From a virus (taxonomy: Duplodnaviria; Heunggongvirae; Uroviricota; Caudoviricetes): DNA of 10,643 nucleotides. Both the position numbers and the translations under genes were made by a program. The stretch lies in IMG/VR virus record IMGVR_UViG_2548876868_000025. One strand, 5' to 3'. Below, one piece after another: positions 318 to 6,465 of the stretch; positions within the stretch are counted from its first letter, which is position 1, and every line of letters begins with the position of its first letter. The notes under the pieces were generated by a model, which saw only the letters and a list, made by a program, of their open reading frames with translations, was not told the origin of the DNA and searched no databases.

Positions 318-537
318 GGTCCTTCCTGGAATTATGGCCCGTTACGGGGCGGCGACCTCGCGCGTTTTCGCTATTTATGAAAATTTTTAGGGAAAAAGCA
401 GATCCGTTCTTCTTCTCTGTAACAGAATGTTTAACAATGAAAATATTAAAAAAAGAAAGGATCTTACACGAGGCATTTTAGCCAGAAAATGCCATTATCA
501 GATCCTTTCTCATTTTTGTTCAATAATTGCGCGTCTG
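318..537 (+). other. cos1: lambda-type cohesive-end site (cosN 347-358, followed by a lambda-like cosB region)
   Basis: Plus strand reads cgttacg GGGCGGCGACCT cgcgcgttttcgctatttatgaaaattttt, nearly identical to the phage lambda left end as recalled. Downstream blocks ccgttcttcttc, aaaagaaagga, tcctttctc and tttttgt mirror lambda cosB R-site/IHF-region sequence. Confidence 0.75.
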
Positions 538-1180: not shown

Positions 1181-1256
1181 CCCGAAAAGGCTCATAAATA
1201 GCGAAAATCCGCGAGGTCGCCGCCCCGTAACGGGTCCATATGCCGGAAAGGACCCG
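1181..1256 (-). other. cos2: lambda-type cohesive-end site (cosN 1214-1225 on the minus strand), upstream of and colinear with the Nu1-like gene
   Basis: Minus strand reads acgggtcctttccgg...cgttacg GGGCGGCGACCT cgcggattttcgctatttatga. The core 23 bp is identical to cos1 and the upstream flank resembles the lambda right end (ACGGGTCCTTTCCGG). Confidence 0.75.
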
Positions 1257-4205: not shown

Positions 4206-4616
4206 TCAGAACGAAATATCATCACCGTAAGGGTCATCGCCTCCCGCTGGTGGCTGATTACCCTGTGTGCCTGTGGTTTTGCGTCTGTTCCCGCCTGGAC
4301 GTGCCGCGCGGGCACTGATTACGCTGTCTGCGATAACCTGCCAGCCCTGCCGCGTTTCTCCGTTCTGTCCGGTCCACTGGCTTACCTGCATCGTGCCGGA
4401 TACGCTGGCAACATCGCCTTTTTGATGTTTAGCCAGGAAGTCGGCCTGTTTGCCAAATGCGATGACCGATAACCATAACGTCGCCTGTCCGTCCTGTGCC
4501 TGGCTGCATGGCAAAGATACCGCCATACGCGCCAGCGTCATCGGTGTGCCCTTGCTGGTCTGTTTTACCTGCGGGTCGTCCACCAGCCGCCCGTAAGCGG
4601 CTATCTGTGCCGTCAT
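4206..4616 (-). CDS. ssb: single-stranded DNA-binding protein
   Basis: 136 aa. OB-fold-like core (LWLSVIAFGKQADFLAKHQKGDVASVSGTMQVSQWTGQNGETRQGWQVIADSV), Gly/Pro/Gln-rich linker and acidic C-terminal tail DDPYGDDISF, comparable to the E. coli SSB DDDIPF tail. ATGA overlap with the upstream gene. Confidence 0.85.
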   Translation of the reverse strand: MTAQIAAYGRLVDDPQVKQTSKGTPMTLARMAVSLPCSQAQDGQATLWLSVIAFGKQADFLAKHQKGDVASVSGTMQVSQWTGQNGETRQGWQVIADSVISARAARPGGNRRKTTGTQGNQPPAGGDDPYGDDISF

Positions 4617-4882
4617 AATTCCACCTCTCCGGTTTTAACGTTGATGGTTGTTACCTGTTCCGCTTCGGCAATCTCCCGTTCTGTCAACGTGGCAAAGTTT
4701 GCCGCTGCTGTGGTCATGAATGCGCTTATCAGGTCGGGATGTTCCTTCGCGTATCCTTCCCCTGCGTGGCGGTCTATTACCCTGATTGCCACCTTTAAGG
4801 CGTGCTCTGTCATGTCTAACGCTTTATATTTCGGCTCTGTTCTGTCTCTGCGCATTTTGGTTATCTCCTCACTCATGCTCAC
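4613..4882 (-). CDS. hypothetical protein (87-89 aa), translationally coupled to ssb
   Basis: Start is GTG at 4882 or ATG at 4876, with GTGAGG upstream. No family recognised. Confidence 0.55.
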   Translation of the reverse strand: MSMSEEITKMRRDRTEPKYKALDMTEHALKVAIRVIDRHAGEGYAKEHPDLISAFMTTAAANFATLTEREIAEAEQVTTINVKTGEVEL

Positions 4883-5068
4883 TTTTACGCCTCACTTTTT
4901 AAAGCGTCTCGCTTCGTCTCACTTGAGATTTTTGTGTTTTGTATGCGCATGTTTCATAAGTGTTTTTTTTACGCCTCACTTTTGAGCATGTATACAGGTG
5001 AGAAAGTGAGCAATCGTGTTAATATTTTGTAAAAACCTCACCATTACTCACTTTTGCTACTCACTTTT
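4878..5068. repeat. Iteron array (candidate replication origin) immediately 3' of the replicase gene
   Basis: CTCACTTTT direct repeats at 4878, 4891, 4975, 5047 and 5060, a variant CTCACTTGA at 4918 and an inverted copy in GTGAGAAAGTGAG (4998-5010). An AT-rich tract lies between them (4921-4970). Confidence 0.6.
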
Positions 5069-6465
5069 TACAGTGGTCCTACATCATCACCATCAATGTA
5101 AATCACGGCGTCTTTTTCCAGTTTGGCTAACCATCGCCGCATATTTTTCACGTCATACCCAAGCCGTTTCATGTCATCACGTAACAGCGGGATCGTGCAC
5201 TTGTCGCCGTTCTGTGTACGTGAACGGATGCACCCCCATAGCGCGGTATGGTTTTCCGTCTTGTTGCCTGCCTCCTCGATGCGCTCCAGTTCAACGGGAG
5301 GGCGCGGCTTATCCACCACCACCAGCGACGTGATTAACTCCCCGTCAGCGTCGGTAAAAAGCTCCACCACGCGTAAGTCATATGCGGCTTCTTTGAGTTC
5401 CTCCGCGTCCTTCATTTTGGTGCATGAGATAACCAGCGCTTCGCTGCCTGCGTCCTCCCTGCGTATCCGGTATTCAGCGTCCAGTGATGCACGAAATGCA
5501 CTGGAACCACGCGCCCCCTTTGTTTCATCCTTGCCGGAATGGTGAACCACCAGCACCGTGGCCCCTGTGCGCCGTTTCAGTTCGTCACAACCACGGATAA
5601 ACGCCCCCATATCACGGGAATCATTTTCATCATTACCACCAAAGCAACGCGCCAGCGTATCCAGAATAATCATGCGTACAGGTTTACCCGTTTCCCGCTC
5701 CACCTGACGGGCAGCGATAACCATTTCATCAACATCAAACGGGGCAGCCGGAAAGATGGGACGGTTTACCAGGTACAGATTTTTCACCTGCTCACCGTGC
5801 ACAACTTCCCACGCTCTCACGCGACGCGGTACACCAATACCGCCTTCACCAACCACATAGAGGACCGCACCATGTGCAACCCTGCGGCCTCCCCAGTGGC
5901 GACCCGTTGAAACGTGACACGCCCACGAACCAGCAAGGAACGACTTATATGAACCGCTCGCCCCGTATATGCTGCATAGCGACGATGCCGGAATAATCCC
6001 CTTTACCACGTAATCTAATTGCGTGTCGTATCCGGCAGATCCAACGCTCATCGGTAGCGTGGTTTTTCGCTGGTGGCTCAGGCTTTCCCCGCGTTCCCAT
6101 GTCTCCCTAAGCCGTGGAAGCTGGTCGCTCCATTCCTCCAGCAATTCGAAATTTTCAGAAAACAGGCGCGCTTCCTGGACTCCTGCGATTGCCAGTTTCG
6201 TGGCGATGGTTAACAACTGCACTTCGTCAATATTTCCGGCACGTATCACTTTCGCCCTGAACCGACCTTTATCAACAATCTGCAAGTTATCCAGTTCGCT
6301 TAACTGATAACGCCCCAGGTAAACGGGAGGGACTGGATCGCCTGCTTTTTTGGCCTGTGCAATGATGTAGTGCTCTGCAAATGAGTGAGCATTATCACCC
6401 GCAAAAATAACCGCTTCGGTGTGTTTATCTTTCGGTAACAGTTTTACATTCGGTGCCAGTTTCAT
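5068..6465 (-). CDS. replication protein with a RecA-like/AAA ATPase core (primase-helicase-type replicase of P4/PICI-like elements)
   Basis: 465 aa. Walker A GASGSYKS and Walker B-like MIILDT followed by an acidic stretch; unassigned N-terminal domain of about 150 aa; C-terminal DNA-binding-like tail. ATGA overlap with the upstream gene. Confidence 0.85.
   Translation of the reverse strand: MKLAPNVKLLPKDKHTEAVIFAGDNAHSFAEHYIIAQAKKAGDPVPPVYLGRYQLSELDNLQIVDKGRFRAKVIRAGNIDEVQLLTIATKLAIAGVQEARLFSENFELLEEWSDQLPRLRETWERGESLSHQRKTTLPMSVGSAGYDTQLDYVVKGIIPASSLCSIYGASGSYKSFLAGSWACHVSTGRHWGGRRVAHGAVLYVVGEGGIGVPRRVRAWEVVHGEQVKNLYLVNRPIFPAAPFDVDEMVIAARQVERETGKPVRMIILDTLARCFGGNDENDSRDMGAFIRGCDELKRRTGATVLVVHHSGKDETKGARGSSAFRASLDAEYRIRREDAGSEALVISCTKMKDAEELKEAAYDLRVVELFTDADGELITSLVVVDKPRPPVELERIEEAGNKTENHTALWGCIRSRTQNGDKCTIPLLRDDMKRLGYDVKNMRRWLAKLEKDAVIYIDGDDVGPL

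Follow-up and report, generated by a model that had tools for sequence, protein, structure and literature searches.

The window considered here, i.e., the whole stretch of 10,643 bp that was analyzed, represents a PICI (phage-inducible chromosomal island, a type of phage satellite) of about 10.6 kb, which is gene-for-gene syntenic with EcCICFT073, the prototype of the E. coli PICIs, and 100% identical to the locus lying between yejO and tRNA-Pro/yejM in E. coli DEC9B. All the genes of the window are located on the minus strand and include int, a small HTH regulator, Icd-like genes, DUF4222, a gene coding for a “helicase RepA family protein” (hereafter rep), a small ORF, and the genes for SSB, PerC, a lambda E-type major capsid, a decoration protein, and a Nu1-like small terminase. 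The traits by which PICIs are recognized (an integrase, an AlpA-type regulator, a unidirectional operon, a length of about 10-12 kb, and a specific att site) were found; as for the last one, the published att core of the yejM-site PICIs was not detected in the window and was present as a single copy, with one mismatch, beside int in L001. PICIs integrated at the yejM site were included in the catalogue of Fillol-Salom et al. 2018 (PMC6092414), as was EcCIDI14 (CP002212 249047-259688; PMC6092414), within which one of the loci compared below (L087) harbors the same RepA-type gene and a GTGGG-type array; thus, both this class of elements and the Rep allele, as a “Pri-Rep” variant, were already on record.

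The region on which we focused embeds rep (5068-6465, minus strand; 465 aa, TAA at 5068-5070), a spacer of 203 bp between the Rep stop codon and the next gene, the small ORF (4613-4864, minus strand; PHROG 1231), which, over 69 aligned residues, shows 84% identity with the corresponding ORF of EcCICFT073, and the gene coding for the island single-stranded-DNA-binding protein (4206-4616, minus strand; Pfam SSB, 1.7e-16), which occupies the same position in EcCICFT073. The start of the small ORF is ambiguous: the RefSeq start is at 4864, the window and L083 exhibit ATA (4864-4862) where L084-L089 exhibit ATG, and in-frame ATGs occur at 4855 (behind a GAGGAG Shine-Dalgarno sequence) and 4876.

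Three regions can be distinguished in Rep: the first 126 residues make up an alpha/beta domain, an AAA_25 core follows at aa 147-314, and the C-terminal part (aa ~400-465) is predicted to be a winged helix. AAA_25 is the only Pfam family recognized in the protein (aa 147-314, 8.5e-44), the nearest solved relative in a sequence search of the PDB is the RSF1010 RepA hexameric helicase (1g8y; a weak match), and the PHROG relatives of Rep are primase-helicases. The full-length AF2 model, in which the helicase core is partly of low confidence, matched RecA-fold proteins such as RadA, Rad51, T7 gp4 (replisome), and KaiC; since the helicase region is modeled with low confidence, the full-length fold search was uninformative beyond the RecA-like cores, and a model of the C-terminal domain (CTD) alone was needed. 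According to these matches and models, the core of Rep is predicted to be a RecA-fold domain of the RepA type, SF4-like, and the assignment of Rep to the AAA+ SF3/SF6 initiators (the class of SaPI Rep, P4 alpha, and LTag/E1) was discarded because the core matches AAA_25 and the RecA fold instead. For helicases of the SF4 family, a 5'-3' polarity is expected. The model of the CTD (the last ~65 residues; pLDDT 91, pTM 0.78) consists of three helices and a beta-hairpin wing, and its best Foldseek matches are all DNA-binding wHTH proteins (DtxR/IdeR, Fur, MepR, LexA, and IclR), with TM values of 0.57-0.72, probabilities of 0.9-0.99, and E-values that are modest for this small domain (0.03-0.1). 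As regards the N-terminal domain (aa 1-126, window 6088-6465), it is modeled as a confident alpha/beta fold (pLDDT ~77-93 over aa 11-120) and recurs, with 42-59% identity, in otherwise unrelated replication proteins of satellites and plasmids, including the EcCICFT073 Pri-Rep and proteins annotated as DUF927, DUF5906, and P4-family primase; it does not follow the iteron type described below and resembles a mobile adaptor module.

The 203-bp spacer has a GC content of 0.38, vs 0.50 for the window, and hosts an array of short iterons with a core of 8-9 bp and a spacing of 10-13 bp. Five exact copies of the 9-mer CTCACTTTT (AAAAGTGAG when read on the coding strand) were counted on the plus strand, at 4878, 4891, 4975, 5047, and 5060, and the rest of the 10,643-bp window contains none. 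Shorter direct copies are found at 4918 (CTCACTT), 4868 (CTCACT), 5037 (CTCACC), and 4908 (degenerate CTCGC), and there are two inverted copies, GGTGAG at 4997-5002 and the adjoining AAAGTGAG at 5003-5010 (plus strand). The initial annotation had reported at least six copies, a count that holds for the 7-mer CTCACTT, through the addition of the copy at 4918, and does not hold for the exact 9-mer; the single inverted copy that it had described corresponds to AAAGTGAG and is indeed real, with the second one lying next to it. The two extended copies also noticed at that time were recovered as ACGCCTCACTTTT at 4887-4899 and 4971-4983, and the full 17-mer TTTTACGCCTCACTTTT is common to both of them.

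Following the direction of transcription, the array starts within the stop codon itself, as the iteron at 5060-5068 overlaps the rep TAA, and its Rep-proximal set (5037-5068, minus strand) is composed of three direct copies on the coding strand, i.e., AAAAGTGAG at 5068-5060, AAAAGTGAG at 5055-5047, and AATGGTGAG at 5045-5037; a three-copy proximal set beginning at the stop codon recurs in the homologous loci. An AT-rich spacer (5011-5036, GC 0.23) then leads to a central palindrome (4975-5010), which on the coding strand is made up of CTCACTTT with CTCACC, TGTATACA (4989-4996), and TGCTC with AAAAGTGAG; in other words, two iterons face each other across the TATA-like centre TGTATACA, the copy at 4975-4983 opposing those at 4997-5010. 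Beyond the palindrome lies an A/T-rich tract (4925-4970, GC 0.28) with an A8 run on the coding strand, which is a candidate DNA-unwinding element and confirms the AT-rich tract initially associated with the array; an AT-rich spacer of ~50 nt is kept at the equivalent position in the E. coli variants and in other genera. The Rep-distal set (4865-4926, minus strand) again consists of direct copies on the coding strand, namely TCAAGTGAG (4926-4918), the degenerate GAAGCGAG (4915-4908), AAAAGTGAG (4899-4891), AAAAGTGAG (4886-4878), and AGTGAGGAG (4873-4865), and is collinear with the distal sets of L083-L089; the proximal and distal blocks form a 49-nt direct repeat with 73% identity. The end of the array, AGTGAGGAG, is the source of the GAGGAG Shine-Dalgarno sequence of the next gene; hence, the overlap between iterons and ribosome-binding region previously pointed out is correct, although the iterons involved, which had been called the first ones, are the last in the direction of transcription.

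The clustering of the repeats is very marked: counting both strands, 8 of the 11 CTCACT sites of the window fall in the 213 bp from 4860 to 5072, where 0.06 would be expected from the density outside (Poisson tail 5e-15). A dinucleotide shuffle scored by the most frequent 8-mer gave counts of five or more in 47 of 5000 randomized sequences, a test weakened by the T-runs of the region, so that we relied on the density comparison and on the cross-locus control reported below. No second iteron cluster exists elsewhere in the 10,643-bp window. Neither a sigma-70 promoter nor a terminator was predicted in the spacer between rep and the next gene, which places the array within a transcription unit; besides, the hairpin stability of the palindrome (4975-5010) is not significant and no Rfam family reaches the threshold in the spacer, and the idea of an RNA element, a terminator, or a promoter was discarded on these grounds. 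No DnaA box was found in 4860-5072 at up to two mismatches, and a literature search for the strings CTCACTTTT and AAAAGTGAG retrieved unrelated papers only.

A scan with one genome per species retrieved 80 loci with Rep relatives, of which 78, from the Enterobacterales, were usable. The relatives are 52-71% identical to the window Rep over aa ~127-465, possess variable N-termini, and are ~350, 455, or 700 aa long, with one protein cluster of the ~700-aa form (P0119, 680 aa) harboring Zn-ribbon and Toprim primase domains. At least four copies of a single GTGNGG hexamer were detected within 263 bp 3' of the stop codon in 62 of the 78 loci, whereas none of the 1549 equally long background windows taken from the same loci reached four copies (maximum, three). 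The array-bearing loci belong to Xenorhabdus, Pectobacterium, Serratia, Morganella, Pantoea, Kosakonia, and other genera, and they share the same layout, that is, two to three direct iterons from the stop codon, a spacer, an inverted pair, an A/T-rich stretch of ~50 nt, and three to four direct iterons. The inverted pair, 32-36 bp around (T)ATATA(C), was found in 59/78 loci and begins 36-71 nt (mostly 46-61) past the stop; the whole layout is retained even with a different downstream gene. Three types of core can be recognized: AAGTGAGG (GTGAGG type) in the window and in Xenorhabdus; AAGTGGGG(A) (GTGGGG type) in Serratia, Pectobacterium, Morganella, Pantoea, and others; and AAGTGCGGC (GTGCGG type) in Kosakonia, Phytobacter, Enterobacter, and one Klebsiella element. 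Within E. coli itself, the RepA-type rep-ori is present in more than 1000 complete genomes (counts of 1058 and 1562).

The loci lacking a clear array mostly carry a truncated or decayed rep or degenerate repeats. Decayed arrays (AATGAG and AGCGAG variants) or a truncated rep/ori were observed in L003, L015, L024, L021, L065, and L077, which suggests a joint decay of rep and its origin in islands that have become domesticated or defective. A different situation is found in Xenorhabdus beddingii (L002), where a second array, of the GTGGGG type and with its own inverted pair around TGTATATAT, lies ~225-330 nt past the rep stop, directly behind the GTGAGG array, giving tandem origins of two specificities with one rep. 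As for the Klebsiella element (L090, CP018459.1), it was deposited as K. pneumoniae plasmid pKp_Goe_795-4, is circular, 16,971 bp long, and satellite-like, and carries genes for an integrase, a capsid, a head-tail adaptor, the large and small terminase, and a product annotated as tape measure, together with a RepA-type Rep, downstream of which there is a GTGCGGC array built in the same way. This record may represent an island that has been excised and replicates, and its features are consistent with an episomal replicating form.

The variation of the iteron core turned out to be linked to Rep. Seven further E. coli origin variants (L083-L089), 71-86% identical, were aligned collinearly with the window, and in this set of eight all the copies, the inverted one included, are GTGAG in three and GTGGG in five. 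Among the eight Reps, residue 441, embedded in the motif GY(D/E)xK-[N/H]-xxRWLxKLE, is the sole column separating the two types, with N in the A-type Reps and H in the G-type ones; one of the latter (L085) is 90-100% identical to the window Rep in every segment. In this strain (E. coli 05-3629), rep is interrupted by an internal stop and bears a pseudogene annotation, yet the GTGGG array is intact. When 64 Rep-ori pairs were compared, the combinations of residue 441 and iteron base were N-A (20), H-G (11), K-G (27), and S-C (6), and none of the other columns among the 335 aligned matches residue 441 in predicting the base without exception (64/64 pairs), even though related loci are phylogenetically non-independent and these pairs correspond to only 4 to 8 independent base changes (Fitch parsimony on NJ trees). 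An earlier specificity search, based on three clades and an 85% conservation rule, had pointed to 23 positions scattered over the protein but not to residue 441, since both H and K occur in the G type; it was the close E. coli variants that resolved it.

In the window, the Asn441 codon is located at 5143-5145 (minus strand), and in the CTD model the residue directly precedes the predicted recognition helix, of which it would be the N-cap. The preference of Asn for adenine and of His and Lys for guanine is a classical one between side chains and bases. Strong indirect evidence, from co-variation and modeling, thus indicates that the Rep winged helix reads the repeats, with Asn441 as the proposed reader of the A in GTGAG. 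As far as comparative sequence data can go, the co-variation proves a relationship between Rep and the iterons, i.e., a binding specificity; initiation is a separate matter. The module responsible for this specificity may also be delimited: the Xenorhabdus Reps have aa 127-465, and not the N-terminus, in common with the window Rep, and possess GTGAGG iterons, whereas EcCICFT073 shares only the N-terminus and its iterons are unrelated. This comparison shows an origin specificity that apparently follows the helicase and winged-helix module (aa 127-465) and not the N-terminal domain shared among PICIs.

On the whole, we propose that 4865-5068 is the vegetative replication origin of an EcCICFT073-type PICI and that the Rep encoded by 5068-6465 is its cognate initiator, a putative hexameric helicase of the RecA-fold RepA type; this is a reading drawn from sequence comparison to which we assign a probability of roughly 85%. 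What is observed, that is, a locally enriched array whose architecture is conserved and whose core co-varies with residue 441, is in agreement with this proposal. Two traits of PICI origins are indeed present: the position immediately 3' of the initiator gene, shared by the homologous loci, and the two iteron sets around an AT-rich region with opposed central iterons. The initial annotation had spoken of an origin of PICI or plasmid type, with iterons bound by the replicase; the former alternative is supported by the synteny with EcCICFT073, the match with the published layout, the array conserved in 62 of 78 loci, and the switching of residue 441 together with the iteron core, and the latter is considered below with the iteron plasmids.

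From these data, we infer binding, melting, self-loading, and replication as follows, the steps of assembly, melting, and loading being modeled on the SaPI and EcCICFT073 paradigm (PMC9371898, PMC6092414). Rep would be expressed from the induced island operon and, after induction, its C-terminal winged helices would bind the (A)AAGTGAG iterons beside its own gene, i.e., the three direct copies from the stop codon, the pair facing across TGTATACA, and the four or five direct copies beyond the 46-bp tract with 28% GC. The facing pair and the direct sets on either side might then nucleate Rep rings or oligomers, leading to the melting of the TATA centre TGTATACA and/or of the 28%-GC tract, and Rep, needing neither DnaA nor DnaC, might load itself to act as helicase at the fork. 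The island SSB, which probably supports replication from this origin, would coat the unwound strands, and priming would be carried out by the host or, in the ~700-aa relatives, by the fused primase.

A different idea is that the iterons serve only as operators for Rep or as sites of copy control (through autoregulation, handcuffing, or regulation of the small ORF, ssb, and perC) and that initiation occurs elsewhere, for example within rep, as for lambda O. The overlap of the distal iterons with the Shine-Dalgarno sequence and the start of the next gene fits this idea, as does an array lying inside a transcription unit with neither a terminator nor a sigma-70 promoter detected, and it has to be kept in mind that co-variation indicates binding specificity, not function. 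However, the PICI and SaPI origins defined by experiment (PMC6092414, PMC9371898) likewise combine an AT tract and a facing pair at the centre with a location just 3' of rep, the window contains no second iteron cluster, and the layout persists where the downstream gene differs; we regard a purely regulatory function, which would leave the AT tract and the facing pair without an explanation, as unlikely. A regulatory role is, in any case, compatible with an origin that also autoregulates.

Even less probable, in our opinion, is that the repeats represent sites for another protein (the AlpA-like HTH, PerC, DUF4222, or IHF) or a functionless product of chance or slippage. It is true that several small DNA-binding proteins are encoded nearby, but only a Rep column tracks the iteron base, and, as for DUF4222, the G-type L085 and L088 carry the same protein (WP_000770163.1) as the A-type window; chance is excluded by the CTCACT density and by the cross-locus control (62/78 vs 0/1549). 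The repeats of lambda cosB are binding sites for TerS, and the island does encode a Nu1-like TerS; that the array might be a packaging/terminase site resembling the cosB R sites bound by a Nu1-like small terminase is nevertheless very hard to sustain, since the exact lambda-type cosN GGGCGGCGACCT is located at 1214-1225 (minus strand, just upstream of terS) and at 347-358 (plus strand), with no cosN-like sequence in 4865-5068, the iteron base co-varies with Rep and not with TerS, and in other elements, whose packaging genes are quite dissimilar, homologous arrays are again located after rep. A lambda-type cos site at the array was excluded because cosN is elsewhere. Concerning the two cosN copies, they lie in a 71-nt inverted repeat (317-387 and 1185-1255; 83% complementary) bracketing the Nu1-like terS (538-1080), and such a pair of cos sites in opposite orientation, ~870 bp apart, is unusual for a cos-packaged element.

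Returning to the proposed replication origin, the kind of origin is one already described, the family of islands is known, and no new principle is involved; the origin sits where the PICI paradigm predicts, and the value of the finding is in the details, since the RepA-type PICI origin can now be described with coordinates to the base and with an architecture that is conserved. The literature search did not reveal any functional test of a RepA-type PICI origin, and what goes beyond the published work on PICI origins that was found is the putative RecA-fold (SF4-type) self-loading initiator, the base-level architecture, and the one-residue/one-base rule. It is possible to go one step further and to imagine a widespread enterobacterial class of self-loading RecA-fold (SF4, RepA/gp4-like) initiators whose specificity for position 4 of GTGNG is set largely by residue 441 (N-A, H/K-G, and S-C), a generalization for which we see about even chances. 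If it is true, then residue 441 would set the replicon compatibility of co-resident satellites, about ten iterons would have been converted in concert with each change at position 441, and the substitution N441H combined with A-to-G edits of the iterons should reprogram the origin. The rule is simple and directly testable; it could account for the coexistence of several PICIs in the same cell with no cross-talk between their origins, and it could serve to build orthogonal Rep-ori pairs.

A last point concerns the relationship between this origin and the systems already known. The iteron plasmids (pPS10, RK2, F, and R6K) resemble it in having direct initiator sites beside an AT-rich unwinding element and a winged-helix initiator; however, their iterons are 17-22 bp long with a phasing of ~22 bp, they possess DnaA boxes, and they depend on DnaA, DnaB, and DnaC, as their initiators lack helicase activity. 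An iteron-plasmid origin was thus rejected on the basis of the 8-9 bp cores at 10-13 bp spacing, the lack of a DnaA box, and the AAA_25 helicase initiator, and the plasmid-type half of the original suggestion was abandoned with it, as there are no iterons of 17-22 bp and the initiator is itself the helicase. In outline, the facing short elements, the central palindrome, and the AT tract may also recall the origins of SV40 large T antigen and papillomavirus E1, a layout that would suit the assembly of two helicase rings; these SF3 helicases, however, belong to viruses of eukaryotes and bind their origins through another fold, and no homology is implied. Closer in biology is P4 alpha, the multifunctional initiator-helicase of an enterobacterial satellite, whose C-terminal domain binds repeated octamers and which acts independently of DnaA. 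Unlike the window, which exhibits a single compact array after rep, P4 combines a primase with an SF3 helicase, uses other repeats, and needs the distant crr as a second site; the likeness itself is in part that discussed in PMC6092414. In the SaPIs (PMC9371898 and the work cited therein), the initiator (Rep/PriRep) is likewise a helicase with a C-terminal winged helix for short iterons, as predicted for the window Rep, and rep is immediately followed by six to twelve iterons, those at the core being opposed and the centre being AT-rich. Nevertheless, the SaPI Reps are AAA+ proteins (SF3 or MCM-like SF6) with 3'-5' polarity, in contrast to the predicted RecA-fold AAA_25 core of the window Rep (RSF1010 RepA/T7 gp4-like, SF4), and the two share no sequence similarity. 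Finally, in EcCICFT073, rep together with its 3' iteron region supported plasmid maintenance, which was reduced by deleting either of them (PMC6092414). That functional test covers the EcCICFT073 allele, whose iterons are different (GGTAGAYA/TGTCTACC) and whose Pri-Rep, a protein of 584 aa with the annotation “DNA primase family protein”, is 45% identical to the window Rep in the N-terminal 126 aa and unrelated beyond them; nonetheless, the two elements have in common the island family, the gene order, an origin immediately 3' of rep, and two iteron sets flanking an AT-rich region.
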